NCBI RefSeq assembly: GCF_056746865.1
Contig: NZ_CM163382.1
Length of the DNA: 64,000 bases
Direction: 5' to 3' (one strand)
This document shows, piece after piece, positions 8,324-40,974 of the stretch (its first letter is position 1; the number at the start of each line of letters is the position of its first letter). The notes under the pieces are model-generated. The model was not told where the DNA came from. It ran no database searches and saw nothing but the letters and a program-made list of their open reading frames with translations. Both the position numbers and the translations under genes were made by a program.

Positions 8324-8353
8324 AACATTCATTCATGATGCATCATGAACCTT

Positions 8354-8391
8354 AAAAAAGCCTGTAACTTCAACGAGTTGCAGGCTTTTTT
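8354..8391 (+). terminator. ssrA intrinsic terminator
   Basis: aaaaaagcctgtaacttcaacgagttgcaggctttttt hairpin plus T-run directly after ssrA. Confidence 0.6.
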
Positions 8392-8489
8392 GTTGCATGT
8401 GTGGTCATGATCTCTGTATGAATCTTGACCTTTTGGCACCATGTTTAGCACCACGGTATCGTGGGGCTAAAAAAGCGTGGTGCTAAAAC

Positions 8490-9737
8490 ATGCCTAAGCA
8501 ACTGAAACCCTTAACAAATGTGGAGATCGCTGGCGCGAAGCCCCGTAGCACGGATTATGAGCTACGGGACGGTGAAGGCCTGTACTTGCTGGTTAAGACT
8601 TCAGGGAGGAAGGCCTGGCATTTCGAGTATTATCATCCCGTCACCAAAAAGCGCACCAAAACCAGCCTTGGCCCTTACCCGGTCGTTACACTGGCCATGG
8701 CTCGCGAAACTCGCACGAAATACAGACGACTGCTCTGGCAGGGCATCGATCCCCGTCAACACTTAGCAGGAATAGCCGAAGAAAAACGCCTCCAGAATGA
8801 ATGCACGCTGGAAAAAGTTGCGGAACAGTGGCTCAAAGAGAAGAAACGGACCAGCGACCTTAGCGAAGATCACGCCAAAGATGTCTGGCGCTCGCTGGAG
8901 ATGCACGTCTTCCCTTCTCTGGGCAGTACGCCCGTCACCGAGATCCGCCCGAAGATGCTCAAGGAACACCTCACCCCGCTGGAAGAACAGGGCATCCTCG
9001 AAACGCTGCGCCGGGTTATCTCACGGCTCAATGAAATCTTCCGCTTCGCCATCTCCGAAGAGCTTATCGAGTTTAACCCAGCAGACAACCTGGTCGCCCG
9101 CTTCAAGAAACCGAAAAAGCAGAACATGCCCGCCCTTCCCCCCAGCGAACTGGGCAGACTAATGTTGGCACTACAAAACGCCTCTATCCGCAAGGAAACA
9201 CGCTGCCTTATCGAATGGGAGCTACTGACCTGGGTTCGCCCCGGCGAAGCCGTTAGCGCCCGCTGGTGCGACATCGATATGAAAAAAGCGGAATGGCGTA
9301 TCCCTGACACCTTTATGAAGATGAACCGTTCACACACGGTGCCGCTCAGCAAACAGGCGCTGCGTGTTCTTCAGATCATGGAGCCCGTCAGCCGCCATCG
9401 TCCGTGGGTCTTCCCCAGCATCCGCAAACCGCTGGAGCACATGCACCAGCAGACCGCGAACGCCGCGCTTATCCGCATGGGGTTCGGCGGTGAGCTGGTC
9501 GCCCACGGCATGCGCAGCATCGCCAGAACGGCGGGCGCAGGTCATTTTCCCCGTGAAGTTCTGGAATCTGCACTGGCACACCAGAAAGAAGACGAGATCG
9601 AAGCGGCCTACAATCGCAGCGACTATCTGGAACAAAGGCGACCGCTCATGCAGTGGTGGGGAAACTACGTTGATGCCGCCAGACGGCAGGCATTGCTCGG
9701 TGAAGAAGAACCGCTGCGGATCGTGGAAGGAGAATAA
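8490..9737 (+). CDS. P4-type tyrosine integrase (IntA/SlpA-like)
   Basis: 415 aa; N-terminus MPKQLKPLTNVEIAGAKPRSTDYELRDGEGLYLLVKTSGRKAWHFEYYHP is the P4-integrase arm-binding type; C-terminal catalytic region with HxxR and Tyr; located directly next to ssrA. Confidence 0.9.
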   Translation: MPKQLKPLTNVEIAGAKPRSTDYELRDGEGLYLLVKTSGRKAWHFEYYHPVTKKRTKTSLGPYPVVTLAMARETRTKYRRLLWQGIDPRQHLAGIAEEKRLQNECTLEKVAEQWLKEKKRTSDLSEDHAKDVWRSLEMHVFPSLGSTPVTEIRPKMLKEHLTPLEEQGILETLRRVISRLNEIFRFAISEELIEFNPADNLVARFKKPKKQNMPALPPSELGRLMLALQNASIRKETRCLIEWELLTWVRPGEAVSARWCDIDMKKAEWRIPDTFMKMNRSHTVPLSKQALRVLQIMEPVSRHRPWVFPSIRKPLEHMHQQTANAALIRMGFGGELVAHGMRSIARTAGAGHFPREVLESALAHQKEDEIEAAYNRSDYLEQRRPLMQWWGNYVDAARRQALLGEEEPLRIVEGE

Positions 9738-9783
9738 TGTGACCAGTCCCATTCGTCAGAATCTGTTTGAACGGGAATGCGAT

Positions 9784-10383
9784 ATGCCGCTGCTGGAAGC
9801 GCGGCATCTCGCCCTTCTGCTTCTCGGCCTTGATGCTTCCCAACCTGCAAACGCCCTGCCGGAAGAACATCAGGAAAATTACCGTATCCTGCACGACGCC
9901 ATCAGTCGCACCATCAAAGCAACGGGCATGGTCAGCGCCCCGGCGAACAAACGCATGTTCTATGCCGATGAAATGTTCGCGCTGGCCTGGCGGCTTATTG
10001 ATGACGAACTCACGCCGCCAGAAATTAAGGCCCGGAGCCTGAAGGCAGTGATGAAACTGTCACGCAACAGCCGTGGCCGCAAGTGGCTGAAGACGCTCGG
10101 CGACGATGCGCTGCCGGATCTCACTGCTTCCACACAACCTTCCCTGCGTGGGATGCATAAGCGCGACAAAGCACGGGAGAATACTGCCAGGCTCTGCTGG
10201 TTACTGGTTCAGCTTCTGGTTGATGAGACTGACGGACGGTATGGCACGTCTGATAAACCGGCTTCGGATCGGATACTTCGGAAGCTGAAGGAGCTGGCGC
10301 AGGAGCGGGAATTACCGTCAGACGGGCTTGGGCGAGGGACGTTTTATGAGGTTTTGAAGATGGGAAGGGAGAAGGAAGTTTAG
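9784..10383 (+). CDS. hypothetical island protein coupled to integrase (start ambiguous: GTG 9739 directly after the int stop, or ATG 9784)
   Basis: ORF 9364..10383 overlaps int in another frame; plausible starts lie just past the int stop; no recognisable motifs. Confidence 0.45.
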   Translation: MPLLEARHLALLLLGLDASQPANALPEEHQENYRILHDAISRTIKATGMVSAPANKRMFYADEMFALAWRLIDDELTPPEIKARSLKAVMKLSRNSRGRKWLKTLGDDALPDLTASTQPSLRGMHKRDKARENTARLCWLLVQLLVDETDGRYGTSDKPASDRILRKLKELAQERELPSDGLGRGTFYEVLKMGREKEV

Positions 10384-10732
10384 GTAATAACACTGCAGAT
10401 CGCACGTGAACACAGTGCCACTTTCCCTATGGAATGTGAAATTAATCGGTAATACCCCTCGAAAGAATGTGAACAGACACTCTCTTGCTTAACTGTTGAA
10501 ACTCTTCGAATTAAAGACAAGGTTCGCCATTTAATTATCTGACAGTTCGCCCCAGCACAACGTTAAAGTGATTTTTGATCAATCACCTACTCTGCTCTGG
10601 CAGAGCCAGAGCCGTTTTACTGACTAAAGCACAAGCTTCCAGCGAATGCACCTTTCCACACACCATAAGTCTTGTGTGATACCAGCACTGACGGTGTATG
10701 TTACATATCCTTAAAAAGTTCTCCAGACCGAC

Positions 10733-11905
10733 TTAGAGAACCTTAGACTGTTCTGGGAACCAGTTATTAATTATATGTCTTCGACAGACTTTAGATATTT
10801 CAAATACCTGTCGTGACACTAATGCACCATCAGGATGGCGCTGGTCAGGTATGTCATTTTCTATGTCATAAAAATTATGCGTTATTTCTGGGGGAAAGAA
10901 AACGTTTTTGTCTAAAGGCACGCTTGCATAGGGATTATAATACACATGCAAACCATCAAAATGAGTTTCCTTGTAGTCCCTTGTTCGGCACATTACAATA
11001 TCCGCGCCAACAACCTCATTGTTGTAGAATTGTCGCTTCGTAGTAACATAATGGTCAGGACCAAGTTTTCTCGTATGAGAACCTTCGTTCTTCATACCTT
11101 CATTGGCAATAAAAACATTCACATCAAGAGCTCGGAATCTCGTATATCGGACATATCGATCGACCCGACTCTGAACGATAGCCTTACCAAAAGTACCTGT
11201 CGTTGAAAACACGATAGCACTGATTTCTTTGTATGAGTCATTTGTAAAAATACCTAAAGGTATTTCAGTGTCTTCATTTTTTTTAATCGATAAAACCCTT
11301 CTTTGCCTACCATTTACTAAATCTCTCATCGTAGGTTCTTCAATGCCAAACAATACCCGGTTAATGATTGTATTATTCTGGGTTAAAGATAGATCTGAAT
11401 CAAATGGGGCCAATGCTAACACAAAAGGCTTACCGATTACATGTTCCATTGTTGAGTATGGGAACTTCTTACCATTAATTCCGGTAAAGAGATCGCGCTT
11501 ATCTTTAATTTTCCCAAGAAGTTTTAGCGTAGATTGATGCTTAAACTTAGCTTCACTGAAAATTTCACTGACTGGCGGTTTATGGGGCTTGTCAGAGACC
11601 ATAGCCTCTACGTTAAATTTATAACCTAATGGCGTGCTAACACAAAAATCAGGACTGTCTTTTGTATAGTCAACCGAATACCCCAAACGAATAAACATCT
11701 CATTTAGATATAATTCCCACATAGAAGAATTAAAGGTAGTCTGAAATTCGTTAATAAATTTAGTTTGTTCACCACTGCGTTCCAGTAATCCGCGTCCCCA
11801 TGATTGGATCACCGCCCTAACAGGAGCAAGTTTAGGATCTGTGTAGATTGTTTTAAAATTGTGATTTAGTTTATTTCTAGCTATTTTTGTTGAGAAGAGA
11901 TCCAT
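10733..11905 (-). CDS. hypothetical protein, unassigned family (paralogue A); candidate defence or abortive-infection protein
   Basis: 390-aa AT-rich ORF. Shares conserved blocks with the 356-aa product of 33796..34866: EFQTTFNSSMWELYL vs EFQTSFEPCLWELYL, DSPDFCV vs DAPDFIV, FVLALAPFD vs FVIAIASFD, ISAIVFSTTGTFGKA vs VSAVIYSSLATWGKV, YNPYASVPL vs HNPFAKYPL. Confidence 0.7.
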   Translation of the reverse strand: MDLFSTKIARNKLNHNFKTIYTDPKLAPVRAVIQSWGRGLLERSGEQTKFINEFQTTFNSSMWELYLNEMFIRLGYSVDYTKDSPDFCVSTPLGYKFNVEAMVSDKPHKPPVSEIFSEAKFKHQSTLKLLGKIKDKRDLFTGINGKKFPYSTMEHVIGKPFVLALAPFDSDLSLTQNNTIINRVLFGIEEPTMRDLVNGRQRRVLSIKKNEDTEIPLGIFTNDSYKEISAIVFSTTGTFGKAIVQSRVDRYVRYTRFRALDVNVFIANEGMKNEGSHTRKLGPDHYVTTKRQFYNNEVVGADIVMCRTRDYKETHFDGLHVYYNPYASVPLDKNVFFPPEITHNFYDIENDIPDQRHPDGALVSRQVFEISKVCRRHIINNWFPEQSKVL

Positions 11906-12356
11906 TATTTACCTCTATAAACACTTTGTAAAACTAAACATGTGTATTTTACTGCGCTGATTGTCGAACATATGCTTCAAATTGTAATGCGGTATTCTAC
12001 ATCAGAAAAACCTCTTTTATATTTTCCTCATTAAATTTATTTACACCGAAAAATAGCCGCATGAATCATGTCTGAACAGATGAACTTCTCTAATATAGCC
12101 TAAATACCTACGACTGCGCTATAAAGAGGGAACCTCAAGCACTAATAGCACAAAGAAAATATGCGAACACAAATTTGACGCGAAACTATGACTTAGATAG
12201 GATGAATCTAGGTGGTGATGGTCACCTGGCGCCTGTCTCGCAAAGCAATAGCCCATCGTTCAGAAGTATACCAAATACTTGGCCGCCATCCATTATGACG
12301 CTGCCCGGTTAGCAGGCTATCGGTATCCAAAGCGTTACTTTATTGGAGGTACAGCC

Positions 12357-12896
12357 ATGTCTGACTATTCATACCTAAGCATTCTTAAAACGTGCGCTAA
12401 AAAGCTGGCTCGCATTCAGAAAATTAAGCTTTCCAAAGCACTCGAAATCGTTGCCCGTGACGCGAAATTCACCAGCTACCATGAGCTGTCCGAAGTCGCA
12501 AAACGTGCCCCGCTAGAACAACGGCTGGTTTTCGCTGCAATAGGCGAAGATACTCAAGAGGATGTGATTTATCGCGATGAGATTTTTTATGCCATAGACC
12601 GCGAGGTGGAAGATATGCTCTCCGGCGACATAGCGGAAACAAACGCCTATGGTTTTAGCATAGAGAATCTGGAGGCAACAAGCATAAATTACGACCCAAA
12701 GCGAGGCATTCTGGTCGTCCAAGTCATATTTGATTATCAGGGTGAACAAGATTCTGAACGCCCTTTCTCTGGTTCGTCCTTTGAAATTGTTGCGAAAATG
12801 GAGCTACTTCTTCGCGACAATGTATGGAGCCTCGTAGAAAATAGTCTGGAATTGACCTCTGTTAATTCAAATGTCGATAATGACTGGTACGATTAA
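12357..12896 (+). CDS. hypothetical protein (start uncertain; ORF opens at 12279)
   Basis: Long ORF in the AT-rich int-alpA interval; no motif recognised. Confidence 0.35.
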   Translation: MSDYSYLSILKTCAKKLARIQKIKLSKALEIVARDAKFTSYHELSEVAKRAPLEQRLVFAAIGEDTQEDVIYRDEIFYAIDREVEDMLSGDIAETNAYGFSIENLEATSINYDPKRGILVVQVIFDYQGEQDSERPFSGSSFEIVAKMELLLRDNVWSLVENSLELTSVNSNVDNDWYD

Positions 12897-13497
12897 GACA
12901 TATAACAGTAGGAGGCATTCCAAATTTTTGGCGGAGTGCCTTTTTAGTAACTATATCCAGATGAAATCATCGAGTTATCACATGAGCATCCATCTTACGT
13001 GTACTCAAAACACTTATGGGCTTCTAAATTCAGGAAGTCCCTACTCCGCTTGCTGGCGCTTCTTTGAGCCTCGTGGCGTCCATATACACCAATTAGGCCA
13101 GACCATGCTCAAACAACTTGTCGAGAAATGCTATGTGCAAAAACCACTGGACATGTTCTCGATGACAGCAGGCAAACTAACTGGGCTTGATCAATCTGGG
13201 CCTAAACTGGCTTCCATCATATGCAGAGGGATAGAGCAGGCCAAAGATGTACAACTCGGAGAGTTACTTTTTGCCTGCGGTATCTATGGTGTGGAAGAAG
13301 AAGAAGCCTGGTTACTAGCTAAAAGATTCAGTAATCTTGAGGCCTTGTATGGTGCCAGCATAGATTCTCTGATGAGTTATAACCTTCTTAATGAGGCAGT
13401 AGCTGTCAATACGTATAACTTCTTCCGTCATCCGCTCAATGTGTCGGCTCTTAACGAGTTACAAACAGAAGGTGGATTGAAGGTGCGCCATGGATAG
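12871..13497 (+). CDS. stand-alone protein homologous to the C-terminal helix-hairpin-helix region of NAD-dependent DNA ligase LigA (start uncertain)
   Basis: Translation ...VHIHQLGQTMLKQLVEKCYVQKPLDMFSMTAGKLTGLDQSGPKLASIICRGIEQAKDVQLGELLFACGIYGV...KRFSNLEALYGASIDSL...NFFRHPLNVSALNELQTEG parallels the LigA HhH region as I remember it (QLVEK.YV..P.DLF.LTAGKLTGL...GPK.A......FGTLEAL..AS.EEL...NFF...N..VI.EL); no adenylation KxDG motif upstream. Confidence 0.55.
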   Translation: MSIMTGTIKTYNSRRHSKFLAECLFSNYIQMKSSSYHMSIHLTCTQNTYGLLNSGSPYSACWRFFEPRGVHIHQLGQTMLKQLVEKCYVQKPLDMFSMTAGKLTGLDQSGPKLASIICRGIEQAKDVQLGELLFACGIYGVEEEEAWLLAKRFSNLEALYGASIDSLMSYNLLNEAVAVNTYNFFRHPLNVSALNELQTEGGLKVRHG

Positions 13498-13680
13498 AAT
13501 TAACACCAAGGCTGTGCCCGGCCTTTTATCTATGCAACGTAGCCGATGACAGTTAACGGTGAGACAGCAACACCTGTTGTAACATGTTTGTACTCGTGCA
13601 TTGCCATCCGTAGGCCTAAACATATCTGACTCCCACAGGATGGGGATAAAATACAACATTTGCATTTTCAATTTGTTATC

Positions 13681-13733
13681 GAAAAATCATTAGTCCTGAT
13701 GGGAAATAATATCTTCCCGGACTAATGATTTTC
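13681..13733. promoter_or_regulatory. long palindrome upstream of alpA (candidate operator, or terminator of the upstream gene)
   Basis: gaaaaatcattagtcc (13681..13696) and ggactaatgattttc (13719..13733) form a 14-bp perfect inverted repeat with inner gggaa/ttccc symmetry, about 100 bp upstream of the alpA start. Confidence 0.4.
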
Positions 13734-13831
13734 TATCCGGACTCCACTTTTTTATCCGGGCCTATACCTCCCCTCATCGTTCCGCGCTATAACCGCTCCG
13801 ACACTCTGTTCCCGTCCCGTGAGGTGCAATC

Positions 13832-14047
13832 ATGAAAACCAGTGCAGACAGTAACGATGCTTTTCCCGAAAGCGGCAACGTGCGTATGCGGCAGGTAGTC
13901 CAGTTTCTGGCGATGAGTGAATCGTCGGTTTACCGCCTGATTAAAAACACCGACTTTCCCCGCCCCGTCCACCTCTCTTCCCGACTGGTGGTCTTCGATG
14001 CTGCTGAAATCCGTCAGTGGCAACAGCGCCGCGCCGCCATCCGTTAA
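13832..14047 (+). CDS. alpA: AlpA-family phage transcriptional regulator (HTH_17)
   Basis: 71 aa; VRMRQVVQFLAMSESSVYRLIKNTDFPRPVHLSSRLVVFDAAEIRQWQQRR is typical AlpA; sits directly upstream of the primase gene. Confidence 0.8.
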   Translation: MKTSADSNDAFPESGNVRMRQVVQFLAMSESSVYRLIKNTDFPRPVHLSSRLVVFDAAEIRQWQQRRAAIR

Positions 14048-14082
14048 TCCACGCTCAGGGATGAGCCGACTGATACCCCGTC

Positions 14083-16152
14083 ATGAAACGCGCCCCTTTT
14101 CTCTGTAAGCAGTCTCCGGACCGCACGCTCGAAGTGGTGATCCTTGCCGGAAGCCTGGCATGGGAGACCTCACACGTGTGGCGAAAAGATCCCGACCGGG
14201 AAGATGATGTTCCCCCGATGGTACTCGGCCCGGATGAACTGGCCGATCTGAGCAATCTGACCATTATCAGGCCCGACACGCTCTACGTCCGGGTACTTCG
14301 CACCGGCGATATCAGTGAAGAAGAGCTGCTGAAAATTGCCGTAAAACTGGCGCACGCGGGCGTGCAGATGGCCCGGCTGATGACCCCTGACGGTGAGTTA
14401 CTGGAGAACTGGACCGGACAGCTTGAACGCCTGCGACAGGAAAGACCTTCTGACATCCTGCCGGATCACTTCCGCCTCGATGAAGAAGCACTGTGGTTTG
14501 ATAAGCTCACCGAACGGCGCGACGGTGAAAGCGATGTCCAGCCCCAGCGCATCTGTTCCCCTCTGCGCGTCACTGCCATCACCTGCGACAGCCATGACGG
14601 CAGCTATGGCCGCCTGCTGGAATGGCACACCACCACCGGGCAATTGCGGCGCTGGGCCATGCCGATGGCGATGCTCAGCGGCAACGGCGAGGAGCTGAGG
14701 CGCATTCTGCTGGAGAACGGCCTGACCTATATCTCCACCCGCCCTGCCCTGCGCAGTCTGCTGTGCGAATATATCTCGCGGTCACTCCCCGGACGCCGGG
14801 TCACCTGCGCGGAGAAAACCGGCTGGCACAACGGCGTGTACGTGCTGCCGGATGAGGTTATCGGTCCCGATGGCGACAACGTCATTCTCCAGGGCAGCCA
14901 CTACCTGACTGGCGGCTTTGCACAATCCGGTACGCTGGCAGAGTGGCAGGAGCAGGTCGCCGCGCTCTGTGCAGGCAATTCACGGCTGGTCTTTGCCGTC
15001 TGCTGTGCGCTGGCCGCCCCGCTGCTGCGCCTGACAGGAACGGGCGGCGGAGGCTTTCATCTGCGCGGTGAGTCCACTGACGGTAAGACCACGGTGATGA
15101 AAGTGGCCGCTTCCGTCTGTGGCGGGACGGATTACTGGCACTCCTGGCGGGCCACCGGGAATGCGCTGGAAGGAATTGCCAGCCGCCACAACGATGCCCT
15201 GCTGCCACTTGATGAACTGCGCGAAGTGGACCCGCGTGAGGCCGGGATGATTGCCTATATGCTGGCGAACGGACAGGGCAAGGGGCGCGCCCGCACCGAT
15301 GGCGAAGTGCGTAACCGCAGGCACTGGACGCTGCTGCTGTTCTCCACCGGGGAGCTGTCGCTGGCGGAACACACCGAATGCGCCGGGGAGCGCCTCTACG
15401 CCGGGATGGACGTGCGCATGGTACAAATCCCCAGCGACACCGGGCAGCATGGTTCGTTTGAGCAGTTGCACGGGTTTGCCAGCGGCCAGCAGTTCGCCGA
15501 TACTCTCTGCGACCGGGTGGCCCGCTTCCACGGCACCGCCTTTCGTGCCTGGCTGGCCTTCCTCACCAGCGACCTGGACGCCAGCACCACGCTGGCGAGA
15601 GAGTTACTTCGCCGCTACCAGACCGCCCTGATGCCGGACAACGCCGGAAACCAGGTGCAGCGCATCGTGGCCCGTTTTGCCCTGCTGGCGGTGGCCGGGG
15701 AGATAGCGACACTGAACGGTATCACGGGCTGGCAGGAAGGCTCGGCGTATGGGGCGGTGCAGATCTGCCTTCACGCCTGGCTGAACGAGCGCGGCCATAT
15801 TGCCAACCAGGAAGATGAAGGCGTGCTGGCGCAGATCAAGCGGTTCATTACCGCGCACCAGTACAGCCGCTTTGCCTCGTGGGATGGCCCGGACCGCCCG
15901 CTGAATATGGCAGGCTTTCGCCGGGTGGAAAAAGATCCGCTGACGGGCGAGGAACACACGCTGTTCTTCATCCTGCCTGAGGGCTGGCGGGAAATATGCC
16001 GGGGATTCAGTCCTGCCAGAGCGGCCAGATTATGCCAGGAAGCGGAATGCCTGCTGCCCGGCAGCGACGGGAAATACCAGTCGCAGGTTCGCCTGCCGGA
16101 GATCGGCAAAGCCAGAGTCTACCGCCTCACCTCCCGCATCCTCAGTATCTGA
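14083..16152 (+). CDS. phage/satellite replication protein (primase-like N-terminal region plus P-loop NTPase)
   Basis: 689 aa; Walker A-like GESTDGKTT in the middle; alpA-primase-iteron arrangement typical of P4-like and PICI elements. The many antisense ORFs across it reflect high GC. Confidence 0.7.
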   Translation: MKRAPFLCKQSPDRTLEVVILAGSLAWETSHVWRKDPDREDDVPPMVLGPDELADLSNLTIIRPDTLYVRVLRTGDISEEELLKIAVKLAHAGVQMARLMTPDGELLENWTGQLERLRQERPSDILPDHFRLDEEALWFDKLTERRDGESDVQPQRICSPLRVTAITCDSHDGSYGRLLEWHTTTGQLRRWAMPMAMLSGNGEELRRILLENGLTYISTRPALRSLLCEYISRSLPGRRVTCAEKTGWHNGVYVLPDEVIGPDGDNVILQGSHYLTGGFAQSGTLAEWQEQVAALCAGNSRLVFAVCCALAAPLLRLTGTGGGGFHLRGESTDGKTTVMKVAASVCGGTDYWHSWRATGNALEGIASRHNDALLPLDELREVDPREAGMIAYMLANGQGKGRARTDGEVRNRRHWTLLLFSTGELSLAEHTECAGERLYAGMDVRMVQIPSDTGQHGSFEQLHGFASGQQFADTLCDRVARFHGTAFRAWLAFLTSDLDASTTLARELLRRYQTALMPDNAGNQVQRIVARFALLAVAGEIATLNGITGWQEGSAYGAVQICLHAWLNERGHIANQEDEGVLAQIKRFITAHQYSRFASWDGPDRPLNMAGFRRVEKDPLTGEEHTLFFILPEGWREICRGFSPARAARLCQEAECLLPGSDGKYQSQVRLPEIGKARVYRLTSRILSI

Positions 16153-16169
16153 GTGCCATCTCGCGTGTC

Positions 16170-16385
16170 TTAAAAAAAGGTGGTACAGGGTGGGACAAGT
16201 GGTACACGCAGAGCTGGCGCGGGTTTCAGCGTCCCACTTTAGATAATTTGGTTTAAAAAAAGTGGTACAGAGTGGGACAGCCGTTGCTGAATCTGTCCCA
16301 CTTTTCTGACTGGTATTTTTCAGGTGGTACAGCGCAAAGCCACGGCTGGCGCGGTTGTACCACTTGTCCCACCTGTACCACCTTA
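16170..16385. repeat. iteron cluster, putative origin of replication of the island
   Basis: Copies of GTGGTACAG(R)GTGGGACA: aaaaaaaggtggtacagggtgggacaagtggtaca (16174..), aaaaaaagtggtacagagtgggacag (16254..), ggtggtacagcg (16322..), and an inverted copy gttgtaccacttgtcccacctgtaccacc (16355..16383); A-runs precede the direct copies. Confidence 0.7.
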
Positions 16386-16824
16386 AAAACAGAAGAAATG
16401 AAAATGGCGAAAAGGGACTGCAAAAGCAAAGGCTGAAAGGAAGAGAGAATAAGGGGAACGGACTTACTCTTAAATGGATAACCTATATTTTTATATTCGT
16501 ACCATTTACATGATGGAGTGCAAAGTTACCATTCAACATGATTTGGATTAGATAGCAAAATTCTCTATAGAATGTTTTCTAGATTTCAGAGGGATTTAAC
16601 GATAGCTTATCTCACAAATCACAAATCGGTCAAAAAATATACAGAAAACCAAGTTTTGCCCAGAAATCCTTTTAAAATTTTTGAGTTAAAAATCATTGTG
16701 TTGTATTAATTTCAGGACGCCACATGTCAAATATCGACACCCAATATAGTGTATAAAAACACAGGAGGACTCATTGTGATTTATATAATAAAATAACCTT
16801 ATACATCTTTCTGGAAACCAAGTA

Positions 16825-19027: not shown

Positions 19028-19053
19028 CTGATTCAATCGACAGAATTTCATTA

Positions 19054-19269
19054 TTGCATGTAATTCCTTTGGACCATTATTTAATAAAAGATAAATCAGA
19101 AATTAAAAATGAAATTATTACCATTGTTGAGAAAGCGTGTCAAGAATTAGACAGCAACATTTTAGATTATCTTGAGCATGGAATATCTATAAATCTATTA
19201 ATATTTCCAACTAATAATAAAGATGAATTATCAGGGTTAATGCAAAGGTTGATAAATAATTATGAATGA
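19054..19269 (+). CDS. small hypothetical protein (71 aa) coupled to the helicase gene
   Basis: ORF whose stop overlaps the helicase start (aattATGAatgatg); no motifs. Confidence 0.4.
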   Translation: MHVIPLDHYLIKDKSEIKNEIITIVEKACQELDSNILDYLEHGISINLLIFPTNNKDELSGLMQRLINNYE

Positions 19270-30829: not shown

Positions 30830-31051
30830 CTCGATCTCCTGAGCGCGTCTTTATGACAGGGATTCGCACAACAGCAGGTTCTGCTCCGAACACCTTCAGT
30901 ATCCGAACCGGAGATGATTAAAAAAACAGCAACCGACAACGAAAGTTATTTCCGGTTTTCGCTTAAAACCGGAAAATTTATGAGGACAATCACGCCGGAA
31001 ACCGTGAGAAAGGGATAAAAGAGGAAATCGCGTTCGGTGGGAGGCCATCAT

Positions 31052-32731: not shown

Positions 32732-33082
32732 TGCTACGCCCGCAAAAGCTCGCTAAAGGGCCTTTAAAGGCCTTTAAGGGTAAGGGAGGGAAGTGCGGGA
32801 TTTGGGGCGGGGAACGGTAGACAAATTCAGTCCTCACGACGGAGACTGTTCAAATGTCTCTGTACTGACGCCCCAATATGGCTTTACCACCGTCTCCGAT
32901 TGTTGAACACGTCAATGTCATCGAAGATATCTGCACGATCCAGATCCTGGGTTTTGTAGGCCCGTTTTCTGATGCACTGCTTTTTCAGCGAACTGAAGCA
33001 AGGCCATAGAAGTAAAACAGTACCGCTGGCAACTGGGCATTTTCTCGCTTTAGCGGAGACCAACAGTATGCTTAGATTCAGT

Positions 33083-33622
33083 TTATGCCGTCAGCCGATA
33101 GTGCGACTGCACCAGACCCGAAGGGAAGCTGCGGCTGGATAATAGCGTCAAATCGATATCATGGGGTAATACTCCGAATAGCGGTTTTCCCGAACCGAGC
33201 AGAACAGGAACAGTTGTGATAACGATATCGGCAACCAGACCTTCGCGCAGGAACGACTGTATTAACTGCCCGCCATCGATATAAACCCGGTGCACGTTCT
33301 TCTCCATAAGGTCAGCAAGAGCCTCCCTTGGCGTGCGGCATGAAAACTGTACTTTACCCTTCAGCGCCTTGGGCACGGGGGTATCGGTTAGCTGCCGGGA
33401 AAGCACCAGCACGGGCCGATCATAAGGCCATTCGTCAAAAGTCAGCACCTTCTCATAGGTGCCTCGTCCCATAATGATCCAATCTTTGTCCGCGATGAAT
33501 GCGGCATAGCCATGATCTTCTGTCGGGTCATCGCGCTTTAACAGCCAGTCGATATCGCCATCCTGTCGGGCGATATAACCATCAAGACTGACCGCGATGA
33601 AAACATGTGTGGTGACCATCAA
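33083..33622 (-). CDS. dihydrofolate reductase-like / RibD C-terminal domain family protein
   Basis: 179 aa; MMVTTHVFIAVSLDGYIARQDGDIDWL...IIMGRGTYE...VLSRQ pattern of the RibD_C/DHFR-like family. Confidence 0.7.
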   Translation of the reverse strand: MMVTTHVFIAVSLDGYIARQDGDIDWLLKRDDPTEDHGYAAFIADKDWIIMGRGTYEKVLTFDEWPYDRPVLVLSRQLTDTPVPKALKGKVQFSCRTPREALADLMEKNVHRVYIDGGQLIQSFLREGLVADIVITTVPVLLGSGKPLFGVLPHDIDLTLLSSRSFPSGLVQSHYRLTA

Positions 33623-33678
33623 GTGCTCCGTTTTCAGGTTGCATATATCTCGTTGAGTTTAGCAATGTTCGCTCCAGG

Positions 33679-33738
33679 CACGAAGCGAGCAAGTTACCTA
33701 AGTTGAAGGTCCGCAGGGAGCGAGGAGCAGAAGTTCGA
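33679..33738 (+). repeat. about 60-bp imperfect direct repeat, copy 1 (upstream of paralogue B)
   Basis: cacgaagcgagcaagttacctaagttgaaggtccgcagggagcgaggagcagaagttcga; about 70 percent identical to copy 2, with perfect blocks cacgaagcga, gaaggtccg, gagcgagga, gaagttc. Confidence 0.55.
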
Positions 33739-33843
33739 AGCACATCATGAAGTAAGTTTTAAAATGGGAGATAACTTGCTTTTACATATTTTCCAATGCA
33801 ATATCATACCCTTTTAAAAATAAATCAGATATATGAGGTGAAA

Positions 33844-34866
33844 ATGTCTAGTCTTAATTTATTCGATGATGTCGTACCTTTAGAAAAACAGCATCCAATA
33901 TATATAATGATGAAAAAGGAACGCTATGAACCGGAGAGAGAAGTAATTAACCAATGGGCAAAAGGATTTCTAGACAGGGATAATAAGTTTACAAAAGAAT
34001 TTCAAACAAGTTTTGAACCTTGCCTATGGGAGTTATATCTTTTTGCTTATCTTAAAGAATTGGGTTTAAGGAACGACTTTTCATACGATGCACCTGACTT
34101 CATCGTCAATGAACCTGGGTTTTGCATTGAGGCAACCATAGCCCTTCCGGCACAAGGAGCCCCTGGAGCGCATGGTTTCAGTACGGAAGATATGCCAAGA
34201 GATTTTAATAAGTTTAATTCTGAGGCATCTATTCGACTTAGCAATAGTTTTATATCAAAGGTAAAAAAATTAAGATCGAGATATTCTCAACTTCCTCAAT
34301 GTAAAGAAAAACCTTTTGTTATCGCCATAGCTTCCTTCGACCGACCTTTTGCGCACTTTGCCGCAGCCAGACCCATACTTGCAACATTATATGGTTTATA
34401 TCATGATGAAGAAGCAACCATTGAATCAGGATCAAAGAGCATAATTTCTTATAACGTTGAGGCTGCGGTAAAAAAAGAAAATGTTAATATAGCCATGGGG
34501 TTATTTTGCACGCCTGATTATTCGGATGTAAGTGCTGTGATTTATAGTAGTTTAGCTACTTGGGGAAAAGTAAGAGCTTTGGCGGACAATCCTTCAGCTC
34601 TAACAATTTATACAACCTTTACCCCAAGAGAAAATTCATTATATCCTAAAGTTCATCAAGCCAAAAAAAATGATTATATAGAGCATCTGGCAGATGGATT
34701 GTATATTTTACATAACCCATTTGCCAAGTATCCGTTGCCTAAAGAGACGCTAAGCCACCCTAGAGTAGCACAAGGTTATGTTGAATCTGATGGATACGTC
34801 AATTTTGTAGCGCCAGAGGATTTTCTTTTATTGCGTTTTTTACAATCATTCAATCTTAAAGATTAG
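33844..34866 (+). CDS. hypothetical protein, same unassigned family as 10733..11905 (paralogue B); candidate defence or abortive-infection protein
   Basis: AT-rich; GAGGTG Shine-Dalgarno before ATG 33844 (ORF opens at 33796); shares the motif blocks listed for paralogue A; flanked by the about 60-bp direct repeats. Confidence 0.7.
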   Translation: MSSLNLFDDVVPLEKQHPIYIMMKKERYEPEREVINQWAKGFLDRDNKFTKEFQTSFEPCLWELYLFAYLKELGLRNDFSYDAPDFIVNEPGFCIEATIALPAQGAPGAHGFSTEDMPRDFNKFNSEASIRLSNSFISKVKKLRSRYSQLPQCKEKPFVIAIASFDRPFAHFAAARPILATLYGLYHDEEATIESGSKSIISYNVEAAVKKENVNIAMGLFCTPDYSDVSAVIYSSLATWGKVRALADNPSALTIYTTFTPRENSLYPKVHQAKKNDYIEHLADGLYILHNPFAKYPLPKETLSHPRVAQGYVESDGYVNFVAPEDFLLLRFLQSFNLKD

Positions 34867-35065
34867 TAAATATGGTCATATTTATTTACTTTACATAGAT
34901 AAAGTCTAAAGATGGCACTTCCTTTAAACTCAACTACCTATGATTTAGAGTGGTTGTCCGGCCTGCTTCCGTAACCGTTAGTTCGACTGACGAGATTCCT
35001 GTTTCCCTCTAAAAGACTTGGTTGATTAAAACAGGTCACCGAATAGCCATTTAGTCCACTTTGAC

Positions 35066-35125
35066 CACGAAGCGACCGAACTAACTGAGCAGAAGGTCCG
35101 TTATGAGCGAGGAACGGAAGTTCAC
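35066..35125 (+). repeat. about 60-bp imperfect direct repeat, copy 2 (downstream of paralogue B)
   Basis: cacgaagcgaccgaactaactgagcagaaggtccgttatgagcgaggaacggaagttcac; see copy 1. Confidence 0.55.
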
Positions 35126-35196
35126 AGTTGATCTCACACCCAAATAGTCGCATTACTAACATTGCTGCGTGTTAATCAACAGGCAGCAGGTCACTC

Positions 35197-36294
35197 TTAT
35201 TTTCTTGATAGGCTTTGTATAGTATGAATAAACCTTACAAAGTTATGAAGAAGCTCGTGATTTTCCTCTGATATACCATCTGGGTCAAAGTGCATCACGT
35301 CGTTACGAATTATTCTGACCTTGTCGAGCTCTTTAGTAAATATTTTCTTATCTATTTGAAGTTCGGTTTTTTTCCACAATTCTGGATTTTCAAAAAGTCG
35401 TATATATTCCCCAAAGGTTAAATCTGCGACCGACTCTATAACCCGTTCGCTGTCAAATGGATTAACGATGCTAACAAGCTCATCTTTCGTAAATTTTCCA
35501 TCTATCAGCTTACGAATATGATTTTCGATTTCAGATAGTAAAAGAAAAGGTTCTGACAACTGTCTGAACTGAGAACTAAGATCGGTAGTAGTTATAATCC
35601 CACTAATTCTTTGATCAGAAGATCGCACTAATACGTAAGCATACTCAATAATTCTAGGTAGTGCAGAAAAAATAGAGTCACTGGCGTTTATTTCCCTGTG
35701 TGGCTTCATATAATCACGCACAACCGCAGATTCTGATTGGGTCAACGCTAGTATTGGAGCAATGCTTTCCCAACTAATAACACCTTTAACATCTCGCTCG
35801 CTGGTCATAACGGGTAGTTGAGAGTAGTCATGCCGCAACATCAATGTGATGGCTTCTGTTAATGTAGCGTCAGGTTTCACGGTCACTAGTTTAACATCCG
35901 ATGCTTCGAGTCGACTAACACGGAAGGCTGGCTCGGAAACTGCACCGGAAATTAGTTCATCATGCGGCTGAAATACTGTTTCAGGTGTAGCCAATTCGGC
36001 GTTACTTGATTCGGTTTCTTCATGTAAACATTCACCTGCTTCATGGGGCGTTGCGTCATTCCCCGGAGGTGCATAGATAGTAATTTTTGCATCCAGCGGC
36101 ACACTATCAAAATCAGGTTCGGTTTTAACTCCTAAGCTTTCTAATGCTTTGCGAATTTTGTACGCAACCATGTAGCCTCGACGCTCTGCGCCAAACCAGC
36201 TTATGAATTCTCGCACTGATACTGGGTTTGAGGACATACCGTCTTTTAGTTCACGAAGGATTTCGTTAAGTCTTTCTCGATTTTCTACTGCCAT
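35197..36294 (-). CDS. CBS-domain pair protein with C-terminal HEPN-like (Rx4-6H) domain; predicted nucleotide-regulated RNase-type effector
   Basis: 365 aa; CBS-like segments (TLTEAITLMLRHDYSQLPVM...VKGVISWESI and ISGIITTTDLS) followed by a helical C-terminal region with RNDVMHFD; AT-rich. Confidence 0.6.
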   Translation of the reverse strand: MAVENRERLNEILRELKDGMSSNPVSVREFISWFGAERRGYMVAYKIRKALESLGVKTEPDFDSVPLDAKITIYAPPGNDATPHEAGECLHEETESSNAELATPETVFQPHDELISGAVSEPAFRVSRLEASDVKLVTVKPDATLTEAITLMLRHDYSQLPVMTSERDVKGVISWESIAPILALTQSESAVVRDYMKPHREINASDSIFSALPRIIEYAYVLVRSSDQRISGIITTTDLSSQFRQLSEPFLLLSEIENHIRKLIDGKFTKDELVSIVNPFDSERVIESVADLTFGEYIRLFENPELWKKTELQIDKKIFTKELDKVRIIRNDVMHFDPDGISEENHELLHNFVRFIHTIQSLSRK

Positions 36295-36940
36295 AAAATT
36301 TTCTCCATGTAGGTTGTCGGCTACTGTTAGGTTTCAATCTTGATTCAGGCTTCTCACGCTTTTTTTAAAATCTGGACAACGAGGCTGCACTGACTTTTTC
36401 AGCTCACCTCAGATTGCACCATCCCATACACATAGCTCAGATTCCTAATGTTCAGTATAAGGAGGCCAGAATACGAATTGCCCTTACCGCTAGTGCCAGC
36501 GCGTTGAGTTTAGTAGATGCCTTATTCATTTAGAATTTGATAAAAATACAAGACTCGGACAACAAGCTGCAATATTAATCGTTATTTTTCCACTCGAGGC
36601 CCACCGTCCGTTTCTGGCACAGGGCTGCTGTTGCAGCCCTGAAAACCTTAGACTTCAATCGATTCAAAGATCTCTAATGCATCATCTACTTCAATACCCA
36701 GATAACGGACTGTGCTTTCCAGTTTCTTATGGCCCAACAGAAGTTGGATCACCCGAAGATTCTTAGTTTTCTTGTAGATAAAGTAGGGTTTTGTTCTTCT
36801 CATGGAACGTGTGCTGTAAAGCGAATCTTCGAGACCAAGCTTTCCTGCCCACCCATGAAAGATTCGGTTGTATTGTAGGGTTGATATGAACCGCCCCGGA
36901 AATCCTGGAGACTAAACTCCCTGAGAAAGAGGTAAACAGG

Positions 36941-37267
36941 ATGACTAAAAATACTCGTTTTTCCCCCGAAGTCCGTCAGCGGGCGATTCGTATGGTTCTG
37001 GAAAGTCAGGATGAATATGACTCACAGTGGGCGGCAATTTGTTCCATTGCCCCAAAGATTGGCTGTACGCCGGAGACTCTGCGTGTCTGGGTTCGCCAGC
37101 ATGAGCGGGATACCGGGGGCGGTGATGGTGGGCTCACCAGCGCTGAACGTCAGCGTCTGAAAGAGCTGGAACGTGAAAATCGTGAACTGCGCCGCAGTAA
37201 CGATATCCTTCGCCAGGCTTCCGCTTATTTTGCGAAGGCGGAGTTCGACCGCCTCTGGAAAAAATGA
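36941..37267 (+). CDS. IS3-family transposase OrfA (HTH)
   Basis: 108 aa [57 protein letters not shown]...; ends in an A6 run that overlaps the OrfB start (candidate -1 frameshift site). Confidence 0.9.
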
Positions 37268-38154
37268 TGCCACTGCTGGATAAGCTGCGTGAGCAGTACG
37301 GGGTCGGACCGGTATGCAGCGAACTGCATATTGCCCCGTCAACGTATTACCATTGTCAGCAACAGCGACATCATCCGGATAAACGCAGTGCCCGTGCGCA
37401 GCACGACGACTGGCTGAAGAGAGAGATACAGCGCGTATACGATGAAAATCATCAGGTGTACGGTGTGCGTAAAGTCTGGCGTCAGTTGTTACGGGAAGGA
37501 ATCAGGGTGGCCAGATGTACAGTGGCACGTCTCATGGCGGTTATGGGACTTGCCGGTGTTCTCCGGGGTAAAAAGGTCCGTACGACCATCAGCCGGAAAG
37601 CCGTTGCCGCAGGCGACCGCGTAAACCGTCAGTTCGTGGCAGAACGACCTGACCAGCTGTGGGTGGCTGATTTTACTTACGTCAGCACATGGCAGGGCTT
37701 CGTCTATGTGGCGTTTATCATTGATGTGTTTGCCGGATACATCGTGGGGTGGCGGGTCTCATCGTCTATGGAAACGACATTCGTGCTGGATGCGCTGGAG
37801 CAGGCGTTGTGGGCCCGTCGTCCGTCTGGCACCATCCATCACAGCGATAAAGGCTCTCAGTATGTGTCACTGGCCTATACGGAGCGACTAAAAGAAGCCG
37901 GATTACTGGCATCAACAGGGAGTACAGGCGACTCGTATGACAACGCGATGGCTGAGAGCATCAATGGTCTTTACAAAGCGGAGGTAATACACCGTAAGAG
38001 CTGGAAAAACCGTGCAGAAGTGGAACTGGCCACACTAACGTGGGTGGACTGGTATAACAATCGACGATTGCTGGGAAGGCTGGGCCATACTCCTCCGGCA
38101 GAAGCAGAAAAAGCTTATTATGCTTCCATCGGAAACGATGATCTGGCAGCCTGA
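37264..38154 (+). CDS. IS3-family transposase OrfB (DDE integrase core)
   Basis: 296 aa with DDE-type catalytic core (...[30 protein letters not shown]...[10 protein letters not shown]...[15 protein letters not shown]). Confidence 0.9.
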
Positions 38155-38923
38155 GTTCACAGATAAAACACTCTCCAGGAAACCCGGGGCGGTTCAATAT
38201 GTGCTGATTAGTTCCGATACGAGACCGGAACAAGAAGTCTTTATTGTGCAAATAATCAAGCTTTATCAATGCAGCAATAGCTTCTCTTGTTCCTTTGGTT
38301 ATCTCAAATTGCACAGGGCTACCGGTTTTCTGTTGCAACACCGTTGCTCTGCTTGAAACCAAGCGACCATATGCCACATCAGATACTTTGAGTTTGACCA
38401 GATCACAGCCTCGAAGCTTACTGTCCAGGGCCATATTGAACAGAGCTAAATCGCGCGTTTTGCCTTCCAGTTCAAGCCGGATTCGGGTCCCCCAGATATG
38501 AGATATCTGAAGTGGTCTTTTTTGGCCGATGATACGGTCTTTGTTCCACGGTGACGTGTTCATACTCAAATCTCCTGCAATGTGGGAGATTTGAGTATGG
38601 TTGTCCCTTATGAGCGCAGGCTGTGTGAAAACACTCACCAAATACTAAAATGTATGAGGTTATGCAAAATCTGGAATCAATCAGCTGATTATCAGAGTCG
38701 AATTTTACGTAGGGAAGATATTTTCAGCTCTGTTTTAGGCCATTTCTGCACTCAAAAACGTTTTCACACAGCCGCGGTCAGATCGCAATCTTGCACCACA
38801 ATCTGGTACGAGTCAGGCAAGCATTTGGGGTGAAAGCCTGTCCTGAGTGAGAATCTAACCAAGCATTGTGTTATGTTTAACAACTGGAGTAGACTACAAA
38901 ATCAATTAATTAAGGATCTTGAG

Positions 38924-39499
38924 ATGACTATAGCCGCAGCTTGGGTAAGAACTTTAAGAAATTGCAAAGAATTGATTGTAGTATCAGATAGTAGATTAAA
39001 TGGTGGTATGAAAATGGATTGTGGGCAGAAGATAATAACTCTGCCTCGTTCAGATGCTTTCATATGTTTCGCAGGTGATACTAGTTGGGCATATCCTTTG
39101 ATGCATCAAGTGGCATCAGCAATTGATATATATGATCGTTGCTCCTCACGAGCCCAAGATATTAAAGAACTCAAAACCCATATTCTTAAAATTTTTGAAC
39201 GACTGAGAGAGCAAATTCACGATGCCATAGGTGACATGGATATACCCGATGCAAAATTCATATTCGGGGGATATTCATGGATAAGAAAAAAATTCATGAT
39301 TTGGCACATCACCTACCAAAAGAGTACCAACTCTTTTCGTGCGGATCCTGCACGTGAAATATATGGATCACCTGTTGTATTTACTGGTGATGAAGAACAT
39401 GTAATTGTAGCTAATGCTATGCTTCGTGAAAAATTAAAATCAAGAGGGAAGCTGGATAATTTAGAAAAAGGCATGAAAAATACTGTTAAATTTGAATGA
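38924..39499 (+). CDS. HslV/proteasome beta-subunit-like Ntn-hydrolase-fold protein (tentative)
   Basis: From ATG 38924 (AAGGA Shine-Dalgarno; ORF opens at 38873) the product MTIAAAWVRTLRNCKELIVVSDSRLNGGMKMDCGQKIITLPRSDAFICFAGDTSWAYPLMHQ parallels HslV ([61 protein letters not shown]), with Thr directly after the initiator Met; AT-rich. Confidence 0.45.
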   Translation: MTIAAAWVRTLRNCKELIVVSDSRLNGGMKMDCGQKIITLPRSDAFICFAGDTSWAYPLMHQVASAIDIYDRCSSRAQDIKELKTHILKIFERLREQIHDAIGDMDIPDAKFIFGGYSWIRKKFMIWHITYQKSTNSFRADPAREIYGSPVVFTGDEEHVIVANAMLREKLKSRGKLDNLEKGMKNTVKFE

Positions 39500-39523
39500 G
39501 AACCATTTGAAGTTATTCGAGAC

Positions 39524-39799
39524 ATGTTTTACAAAGTTAATGAAAGTTCTTATGAATTTAAAAACTCATCAATTGGAGGCGCGCCCCAAATCCTAAAAAT
39601 CTATGAACATTTATCAAGTCAAAAACTTGGTGTTCTGTGGAAGAACAGGATGGATAGTGAACCGAACATATATTTATCTGGCCGGAGGCTTACTAATTAT
39701 GGTCCGCGAGATATGTGGATACTAGACCCTGAAAAACTGATAACGTACAATCCATTGAAAAGTAATCCTGATAAGGAGGTAATTAATCAATTCATTTAA
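39524..39799 (+). CDS. small hypothetical protein (91 aa) downstream of the HslV-like gene
   Basis: ORF only; same strand and AT-rich context. Confidence 0.3.
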   Translation: MFYKVNESSYEFKNSSIGGAPQILKIYEHLSSQKLGVLWKNRMDSEPNIYLSGRRLTNYGPRDMWILDPEKLITYNPLKSNPDKEVINQFI

Positions 39800-40131
39800 T
39801 CCTTCGGGCATTTAATTATACTTTATTAAAGATACAATTATTATATTTGCATTTTTAATTTTTATGACAGTTGTAAACAAAACTGTTAAGCATTGTGAAG
39901 AGAACGGGGCAATGAAAAAAAGCCGAGCTGTATTTCGTAGCCCCATCCCCTGACCAATATTTTGAAATCAGGATATTTCGATAGCTAAAACTCGTACAGG
40001 TACGTCTTTGGTGTTTTGTACTGAGCGACTAAGAGCAAATTCGGCAACAGAAATTTTTTGAATATCCTCGAAGCTTGTCAGTGTTATTATTACCCCTTGC
40101 TCAAAAACCAGTTATTTCTCGTGTCCTGTAT

Positions 40132-40470
40132 CTATATCTTCACTGTTAAAGAAAAAACTTTTGAATGTGGTTCACTAACCCGAAGTACAAATAGTTCAAT
40201 TGCATTATTACGATATGCCCTATCATGCCACTGTGGAACTCCCATCGCGATATTGGGACATAATGTTGTTGACAATGGCCGAGTGGTTTCAAACATAGCG
40301 CCGTATTTATATTCAGCGGGCCACTTTCCGCCATGAAATAGATATTGACCTGGCATCATCGGCCTACCACTTAAGCGAATTGCTTCTGATACTGCCTTTA
40401 GATCACAGCAATAAGTATCTCCTTGATATTCTGCAATCGGCTTAGGTGTAGTTTCTGGCATGTAAGACAA
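40132..40470 (-). CDS. hypothetical protein (112 aa)
   Basis: ORF only. Confidence 0.3.
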   Translation of the reverse strand: MSYMPETTPKPIAEYQGDTYCCDLKAVSEAIRLSGRPMMPGQYLFHGGKWPAEYKYGAMFETTRPLSTTLCPNIAMGVPQWHDRAYRNNAIELFVLRVSEPHSKVFSLTVKI

Positions 40471-40941
40471 CCACGAAGGGTGTTGCTTTATAGCGTCTTC
40501 GATACCGGTATCGCCTTCGGTTGTTAGTGTGTATTAGATAAGCATGTTTTTCCGCCCGGAAATTTAAAGAGAGTGAATTATTCGACAGAAACGCTCACTT
40601 CTGGAAACGAACGACAAGCATATAACGTCCACCAAAGCCTCAACCAACACGCAAAACCCAGCCCCCAACAATCAACTTAAAAATCAATCGGATATTAAAA
40701 TCCCTTCCATATCAACTTCATCACCACTCTTTTTGCGCCTTCCCCTTCGCGCAAAAAATCAAAATCCTCAACAAACCCAATCACCTACCCCACCAATTAC
40801 AAGGACGCCAGCCAATCATGATTGGACGGTGCAAGGACAACACCAACAAAAACAGGAAGTTAGCAGTCTCAGCAAGACACCGACCAGACGGTGAGGAGAC
40901 ATAAAAGGATACGCAAAGGAGCCGCGGCTCCTGGTGATATG

Positions 40942-40965
40942 AAAGCCCACAGATGTGGGCTTTTT
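40942..40965. terminator. hairpin terminator next to the ypjA 3' end
   Basis: aaagcccacagatgtgggcttttt, perfect 7-bp stem with flanking A-run and T-run. Confidence 0.5.
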
Positions 40966-40974
40966 CGTTGATGG

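Follow-up and report, generated by a model that had tools for sequence, protein, structure and literature searches.

Defence hotspot #9 of Escherichia coli is situated at the gene for transfer-messenger RNA (tmRNA), ssrA, and holds prophages, P4-like satellites, integrative mobilisable elements (IMEs) and transposons (Hochhauser et al. 2023, PMC10121019). For P4-like satellites seven markers are in use (Int, Psu, Delta, Sid, AlpA, Epsilon and Alpha), at least five of which are required for Types A to C; the median size is 10 kb, and less than 2% of the elements exceed 15 kb (PMC10085698). A defence slot beside int has been described for them (PMC9122126). The essentials described for Gram-negative phage-inducible chromosomal islands (PICIs) are int, alpA, a protein of a broad "Primase" group, which includes DUF927 proteins, and a downstream origin, all in the same direction (PMC10111431); at least four of five PICI markers are required for Types A and B, and elements with three of five are "Type C", which is ambiguous according to the authors of SatelliteFinder (PMC10085698). 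In CP4So, an ssrA island of Shewanella oneidensis, AlpA was shown to be an excisionase; the attR of this island is one T short, and excision gives a mutant tmRNA, ssrA-delU (PMC5148205). The stretch analysed here, referred to as the window, consists of 64,000 nt of contig NZ_CM163382.1 (RefSeq assembly GCF_056746865.1) and represents the E. coli chromosome around smpB-ssrA. Its positions 8324-40814 are very probably a single genomic island of 32.5 kb, which belongs to a family conserved across Enterobacteriaceae.

Comparison with E. coli K-12 by BLAST showed that homology ends at window position 8330 and restarts at 40812, inside psaA, a 14-bp feature of K-12 which is annotated as the ssrA-derived attR of CP4-57. 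A synthetic empty junction, composed of the 400 nt up to ssrA position 8323 and of 400 nt from 40815 on, matched in one piece over its full 800 bp, without gaps, in 1386 of 5426 complete E. coli genomes, with the annotated ssrA beside ypjA. This junction fixed the ends of the island, which thus comprises 32,491 bp; a right end at 40900, as given in a preliminary description of this DNA, had to be corrected by the K-12 alignment and the empty site. The island core was found in 132-144 of the complete genomes (about 132 for the island as such, with ~100% identity), nearly all with identities of at least 99%, a distribution that looks like vertical inheritance within one E. coli lineage. The comparison with genomes lacking the island, which the preliminary description had suggested, yielded the empty site, and the gene order does not belong to the backbone but is variably present in E. 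coli.

A copy of the ssrA end at the far side had not been found by eye, and searches of the window did not reveal one either: exact 12-20-mers from 8200-8490 gave no repeat and no recurring 12-mer in the whole window, and degenerate patterns of the ssrA end matched only the minus strand inside genes (SgrR and others), which was rejected as chance. Both searches failed because attR has been cut down to a remnant of 9 nt, CGCCAGCCA, corresponding to the ssrA end CGCCAGCTCCACCA without TCCAC; an att duplication exists, although only in this degenerate form. The distal junction reads ...CACCAATTACAAGGA-CGCCAGCCA-ATCATGATTGG, with the backbone starting at 40815 with ATCATGATTGG. Nine nucleotides are not significant by themselves, and their meaning derives from the position, i.e., exactly at the backbone junction and after an arm that is conserved in the family. 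The last 200 bp of the island (40612-40814) were 90% identical to the right end of the related island in Klebsiella aerogenes, 87% in Citrobacter freundii, 86% in Salmonella and 84% in E. coli E04, and the match stopped at CGCCAGC in every one of these relatives. A family-specific arm is thus joined to a species-specific backbone, which is the structure expected of an attR.

The preliminary description also considered two tandem elements, since a second integrase, disrupted by an insertion sequence (IS), appeared to be located near the far end. Two or more islands in a row at ssrA, with the distal recombinase as the second integrase, would agree with the GC content, which fluctuates between 28% and 65% over the region, and with the presence of a second tyrosine recombinase gene and IS remnants. 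Real arrays occur in relatives: a remnant of a CP4-57-type int follows the island in K. aerogenes and C. freundii, and in Salmonella a P2-like prophage precedes the island and another truncated P4-type integrase comes after it. However, the ssrA end and the two arms are not repeated internally in the window, which also lacks a CP4-57-type P' arm; the right arm of the family is present a single time, at the far end, and in Salmonella the blocks to the left and right of the supposed divide form one syntenic unit as far as 32797. The distal gene and its disruption are real, but it encodes only a catalytic-domain recombinase of 200 aa with weak Xer/invertase matches and no arm-binding domain, faces away from the end and is located within variable cargo. 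A tandem arrangement is therefore highly improbable.

The single island begins with the integrase that had been noticed directly after the tmRNA gene; its start is 166 nt downstream of ssrA, its type was borne out by the PRK09692 match, and orthologues of 415 aa adjoin ssrA in K. aerogenes and C. freundii. Pfam searches with the following gene, orf214, and with a 407-aa open reading frame (ORF) gave no match. The AlpA regulator could be verified with PHROG_66 and, on its orthologues, with PF05930. The presumed primase/replication protein stood as a DUF927 replication protein (Rep), but not as a primase: relatives of 890-900 aa (58-59% identity over 82% of the query) carry a Zn-ribbon primase domain (PF08273) and a Toprim domain (PF13362) ahead of DUF927, whereas neither was found in the island Rep. 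The match to PHROG_1139 began only at profile position 307, and there was a partial match to the SCCmec helicase Cch1. Orthologues of Rep in Salmonella enterica, K. aerogenes and C. freundii were 95-97% identical. The iterons behind rep were likewise substantiated, with ten of the eleven GTGGKACA matches of the window clustered in 16180-16381, as compared to 2.3 expected per 64 kb from shuffled sequences; all relatives have them in the same number, spacing and orientation.

The full-length protein closest to Rep is encoded by a genuine P4-like satellite of E. coli (locus L024), which possesses the gene order int, orf212, alpA, small ORFs, primase-DUF927, psu, sid-like gene and delta. Its Int and AlpA were 34% and 29% identical, respectively, to those of the island, orf212 was homologous to orf214 (E 3e-15), and of its primase only residues 326-888 aligned to the window with tblastn. 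This homologous and syntenic order of int, orf, alpA and DUF927 argues that the island core is derived from a satellite, in agreement with the original characterisation of the region as an ssrA-integrated mosaic island with a P4/PICI-like core. Equally correct was the statement that capsid, packaging and redirection genes are not recognisable. In the window, PHROG scans detected no head, packaging, terS, capsid or portal genes, and tblastn with Psu, Sid-like and Delta of the L024 satellite gave nothing with E values up to 1. No P2/P4 cos site was present within three mismatches, and Rfam reported only tmRNA, the ALIL pseudoknot of an IS3 element and a tRNA, and thus no C4/isrK (CI-type) RNA. 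A single match to lambda cos with one mismatch, inside the rep gene, was at chance level and was discarded.

At most three of the seven P4-like markers and three of the five PICI markers could be counted. Int and AlpA are present, an alpha-like protein only as its DUF927 half, and there is no psu-delta-sid operon; of the Gram-negative PICI features, int, alpA, pri/rep and the downstream origin are all found, but none for packaging or interference with capsids. A functional P4-like or PICI satellite, which is induced by a helper, packaged and transferred at high frequency, is for these reasons rather unlikely, although it would have int, alpA, rep and origin as its essentials and a core homologous to that of a P4-like satellite. 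The family has also moved between genera at 86-96% identity, and the N-terminal domain of Rep recurs in "phage" records of 15-16 kb that resemble small satellites. Against it are the missing psu, sid, delta, terS, capsid and portal genes, cos site and C4/isrK RNA, the size of three times the P4-like median, the ambiguous score of "Type C", the degenerate attR and the result of a pattern search for the attP junction in IMG/VR, which gave no match. Two IMG/VR loci encoding Rep had been called as proviruses in genomes of isolates and added no evidence for packaging. We conclude that the element would function as an integrative island which replicates and whose core is of the satellite type, and that it is outside the P4-like and PICI families as these are defined. 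A P4-type satellite core can persist as the chassis of a large island for defence and metabolism after the capsid-hijacking genes have been lost.

Movement by conjugation, as an IME, can barely be entertained. IMEs are reported for hotspot #9 in other strains (PMC10121019), and conjugation might have been a route between genera; but no relaxase, coupling protein or type IV secretion system gene was found in the RefSeq annotation or in family scans, in which an origin of transfer was not specifically searched for.

How the island compares with the known systems can be stated for each of them. With CP4-57 it shares the attachment site and the backbone junction, since K-12 psaA aligns with the attR of the window, and also the layout of int, one reverse-strand gene, alpA, a replication-type gene and defence cargo (intA, yfjH, alpA and yfjI in K-12). 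The two islands are nevertheless different, as had been proposed: Int is 48% identical to IntA of K-12, AlpA is marginally similar, the replication proteins are unrelated (DUF927 in the island, DUF3987 in K-12), the cargo is another one and there is no homology at the DNA level. The likeness to P4-like satellites concerns Int, orf212/214, AlpA and the DUF927 part of alpha, which are homologous and in the same order in L024, as well as the defence slot beside int. In contrast, psu, sid, delta, the Zn-ribbon and Toprim parts of alpha, cos and CI RNA are missing from the island, epsilon was not identified, and the island has 32.5 kb instead of a median of 10 kb and carries operons for sugar metabolism. 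With Gram-negative PICIs the island has in common int, alpA, a protein of the "Primase" group and a downstream origin in the same direction; it is two to three times larger, its int and alpA are 4 kb apart due to cargo, and it has no Bro zone and no late, capsid or packaging-redirection genes. CP4So is likewise an ssrA island with a P4-type Int, AlpA and a shortened attR, in a different host and with different gene content; its attR lacks one T versus 5 nt in the island.

In the table of the hotspot survey, an island of hotspot #9 is listed with 40,271 bp, 33 genes, the systems PD-T7-5, PD-T4-1 and PD-T7-5, six genomes and "None" as type of mobile genetic element (PMC10121019). The latter score is a further point against a functional satellite. 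The stretch from smpB to ygaQ in the window measures 41.6 kb, including an IS of 1.3 kb, and fits this entry in size and order; from content, order and size we infer that both are the same island. That survey gave no description of the integration and replication core, of relatives, of att sites or of the hotspot structure, and a search of a limited library yielded no paper on the core, ends or hotspots of the family. An entry catalogued without a type would thus become a defined element with exact ends, an att site and a module for replication, and with related islands in Salmonella, Klebsiella and Citrobacter. Current concepts remain unchanged, since ssrA islands, P4-type integrases and defence hotspots on satellites are all established; the parts worth pursuing are the transition from satellite to island and the regularity of attR.

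This regularity became apparent from a survey of right junctions. With the pattern CACCAATTACARGGACGCCAGC, junctions were collected from 4 genome and 28 metagenome loci (32 in all); five more, from the window, K. aerogenes, C. freundii, E. coli E04 and Salmonella, were obtained independently of the pattern. The sites were window 40806-40814, L010 18649-18661, L017 21868-21878, L057 20166-20178, L058 around 5590 and those in L025-L056. The 32 and 5 junctions amount to about 23 distinct sequences, several being copies of one lineage. The pattern demanded an intact CGCCAGC, so that leftward deletions would be missed, although the five independent junctions agreed with the rest. An intact CGCCAGCTCCACCA was present in none of the junctions. 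The T after CGCCAGC, which corresponds to U357 of tmRNA, was missing in 35 and kept in two; the same single T is lost from the attR of CP4-57 in K-12. After CGCCAGC the junctions read CCACCA, CACCA, ACCA, CCA, CA, A or nothing, followed by several differing downstream sequences, and a few had larger deletions. The deletions thus form a nested series which starts directly after CGCCAGC.

The G3.U357 pair is the alanine identity element of tmRNA. Recombination within the shared CGCCAGC would leave an ssrA ending in ...CGCCAGCCAATCATG, without U357-C361 and hence without this pair; therefore, excision should inactivate tmRNA, in line with the report on CP4So (PMC5148205). It is conceivable, although we hold it only tentatively and think it rather doubtful as a whole, that loss of the U357 base and nested deletions after CGCCAGC are general for the attR of this island family, CP4-57 and CP4So, that they act as a lock or addiction device and that they originate from abortive cleavage by integrase. 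Cells that lose the island would then be penalised by a tmRNA left without its alanine identity pair, the deletions of 1 to 7 nt or longer would arise by abortive integrase cleavage at attR, and their fixed left edge would mark the cleavage point. The regularity may be due to the fact that only locked islands last long enough to be sampled, or it may reflect a micro-deletion at the cleavage site which is linked to integrase. Loss of U357 from attR throughout the family suggests how such islands could become hard to lose.

Members of the family adjoin ssrA or stand in tandem behind another ssrA-integrated element. Their backbone consists of int, orf214, alpA, the DUF927 helicase, iterons, a phosphotransferase system (PTS) resembling that for glucitol (gut-like) and an oxidoreductase, with variable slots between. 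Identities to related islands were 89-95% for the block ssrA-int-orf214 (window 7929-10374), 91-93% for alpA-rep-iterons (13556-16479) and 90-93% for PTS and oxidoreductase (22795-25707; K. aerogenes, Salmonella, C. freundii). The contiguous stretch in common with Salmonella (22795-32797; 93-96%) includes in addition PD-T4-1, hxlAB-PGI-PTS and the SgrR-like regulator. Cargo of defence-like genes and a sugar module had been recognised previously, and both kinds were confirmed; to judge from their retention across relatives, however, the sugar modules are a conserved payload of the island family and not random cargo. PD-T4-1 is located between the two modules in the window and in Salmonella, and a gene with an HTH_3 domain is found in relatives at the place of the island repressor.

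At least three slots of the island are filled with anti-phage genes, and three regions differ between relatives. Variable region 1 (VR1) is occupied by Lamassu in C. freundii and, in K. aerogenes, by an OLD/AriA-like ATPase; variable region 2 (VR2) holds AriA and AriB of PARIS in Salmonella and nothing in K. aerogenes, and the distal region after the sugar modules is different in content. At least two exchangeable defence slots have thus been mapped, and the whole family could be screened at these slots for new systems. In VR2 of the window, a Hachiman-like pair lacks the intact HamB and intact DUF1837 HamA by which Hachiman is defined, due to 1-nt frameshifts in both genes. The hamA-like gene is broken in a T7 run (19011-19017), and addition of one T restores a protein of 488 aa; hamB is broken in an A7 run (20448-20454), where one additional A gives 841 aa. 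Full-length homologues of the HamA-like protein (482-497 aa), one of which is named DUF1837, occur in Vibrio and Aeromonas. The repaired protein showed no match to the HamA models of PADLOC, and a weak HamA match of a lone 71-aa ORF (E 0.003) was not relied on. The frameshifts could be pseudogenisation or slippage-prone switching. Strains 118UI and MMC-J-0066 contain the pair in the same frameshifted state.

The distal cargo at 32834-36294 is specific for E. coli, since homology to Salmonella stops at 32797. The K. aerogenes island has a gene of the Integrase_1 family (291 aa), which in Salmonella comes directly after SgrR, and 64 bp at the end of the SgrR-like gene of the window (32685-32748) were 97% identical to sequence at its end (L005 21555-21618); this integrase gene was apparently replaced in E. 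coli, with the IS3 remnant at the breakpoint. The 200-aa recombinase is intact in strain CFSAN061770 (L004 6649-7251), and the idea of an invertase switch was dropped, because only weak inverted repeats surround the gene. The three ORFs at 38924-40470 gave no match in PADLOC or NCBIfam.

For the single island, the following course can be proposed. AlpA would trigger excision by Int, the DUF927 protein would bind the iterons and replicate the circle with host primase, and transfer between genera would be brought about by a helper phage or another vehicle. At present the island would be inherited vertically and probably locked, with a role in phage defence and sugar utilisation. Several points weigh against this picture. 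Excision, replication and transfer are deduced from sequence data, and no attP junction was seen in the IMG/VR search; the assignment of Rep as an initiator-helicase would depend on the partial Cch1 match, the P-loop and the adjacent iterons. The ORFs for Int, AlpA and Rep have stayed intact, and the element may still excise despite its shortened attR; orf214 and the three ORFs at 38.9-40.5 kb may include an unrecognised gene for mobilisation or hijacking. The RibD_C gene is within the island in E. coli, beside the IS3 remnant, but its K. aerogenes counterpart (L010 20081-20686; 93% identical) is located to the right of attR, beyond a truncated CP4-57-type integrase, a placement which a single island would appear to leave unexplained.

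Table 1. Features of the ssrA island and its borders, with positions in the window.
Feature	Position	Strand	Evidence or remarks
ssrA (tmRNA)	7961-8323	+	363 nt, intact; ARAGORN; Rfam 292.8 bits, full length; K-12 homology through 8330
attL core	8310-8323	+	CGCCAGCTCCACCA, last 14 nt of ssrA
Left (P') arm	8324-8489	+	sequence read directly; identical in K. aerogenes, near-identical in C. freundii
Left-arm motifs	8332-8349 (palindrome)		perfect 18-nt palindrome TTCATGATGCATCATGAA; stem-loop and T-run; AGCACCAC / GTGGTGCT repeats just before int
P4-type tyrosine integrase, 415 aa	8490-9737	+	NCBIfam PRK09692, 459 bits (cutoff 434); PHROG_1 integrase
orf214, conserved partner of int	9739-10383	+	kept with int in relatives
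VR1, defence slot between orf214 and alpA	10733-13497		
PD-T7-5 (VR1)	10733-11905	-	PADLOC E 2e-137
orf179 (VR1)	12357-12896		
LigA-like helix-hairpin-helix protein (VR1)	13135-13497		
AlpA-family regulator/excisionase	13832-14047	+	PHROG_66 E 1.6e-7; PF05930 on orthologues; RefSeq annotation
Replication protein, 689 aa	14083-16152	+	Pfam DUF927 E 2e-106; N-terminal domain of ~125 aa and DUF927 P-loop helicase-like domain
Iteron array, putative origin	16170-16390		10 exact GTGGKACA copies, 6 forward and 4 reverse
VR2, defence slot between iterons and helix-turn-helix (HTH) repressor	16825-21786	+	
Metallo-beta-lactamase (MBL)-fold hydrolase (VR2)	16825-17811	+	PADLOC LmuA/Avs1a-like MBL
hamA-like gene, split by frameshift	17804-19027 and 19054-19269	+	
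hamB, split by frameshift	19262-20464 and 20503-21786	+	PADLOC HamB1, profile positions 4-400 and 413-842 of 845
HTH (RstR/CI-like) repressor between VR2 and PTS operon	21941-22420	-	NCBIfam and PHROG repressor matches
Payload 1: glucitol-family (gut-like) PTS IIC, IIA, IIBC and Gfo/Idh/MocA oxidoreductase	22781-25674	+	RefSeq
PD-T4-1 (DUF3883/NOV_C)	25968-27170	+	PADLOC E 1e-204; same place in Salmonella
Payload 2: hxlA, hxlB, PGI-family gene, PTS IIBC	27242-30829	-	RefSeq
SgrR-family regulator (payload 2)	31052-32731	+	RefSeq
IS3 remnant (distal cargo)	32834-32997		
RibD_C/DHFR-family gene	33083-33622	-	
Second PD-T7-5	33844-34866		PADLOC E 8e-102
DS-11 CBS-domain anti-phage protein	35197-36294	-	405 bits (cutoff 260)
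Catalytic-domain-only tyrosine recombinase, 200 aa, split by IS	36648-38563	-	weak Xer/invertase matches
IS3-family element, ~1.3 kb	~36889-38196		OrfA 36941-37267, OrfB 37264-38154; BLAST breakpoints; ALIL frameshift pseudoknot
Three ORFs	38924-39499, 39524-39799, 40132-40470	+, +, -	one PHROG of unknown function
Right (P) arm	40612-40805	+	identity to right ends of related islands
Degenerate attR	40806-40814	+	CGCCAGCCA, 9 nt, i.e., ssrA end without TCCAC; alignments to K-12 psaA and K. aerogenes

The stem-loop and T-run in the left arm look like the terminator of ssrA, and the roles of the motifs in this arm are putative assignments made from the sequence; a scan of promoters and terminators gave no excess over shuffled controls. 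Perfect palindromes were present at both junctions, namely TTCATGATGCATCATGAA just inside attL and CCAATCATGATTGG (40812-40825) across attR and backbone, and both contain TCATGA.

Among relatives, the Salmonella enterica island is very common; over 11,000 indexed blocks of the collection contain its proteins. E. coli E04 (NZ_CM143912.1) harbours a second, divergent member of the family, which is the source of the right arm with 84% identity mentioned above; its attR and about 700 bp of backbone are followed directly by glaH, and the block ypjA-pinH-ypjCB-ileY-ygaQ is missing. A contig of 1.7 kb labelled as a metagenome-assembled genome of Collinsella sp. (JAIJJM010000675.1) showed a near-identical junction of E. 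coli island and backbone and is probably mis-binned E. coli DNA.

The right flank of the island from ypjA to gabD (40812-54932) was 93.5-94.6% identical to K-12, as compared to 99.0% for the left flank (6368-8330). It also carries a remnant of a pinH-type recombinase and the tRNA gene ileY, and may itself represent DNA that was acquired horizontally long ago or that diverges fast. The tRNA at 48694-48769 was designated tRNA-Met (CAT) by ARAGORN and tRNA-Ile by RefSeq (ileY, with CAU being read as Ile after lysidine modification).

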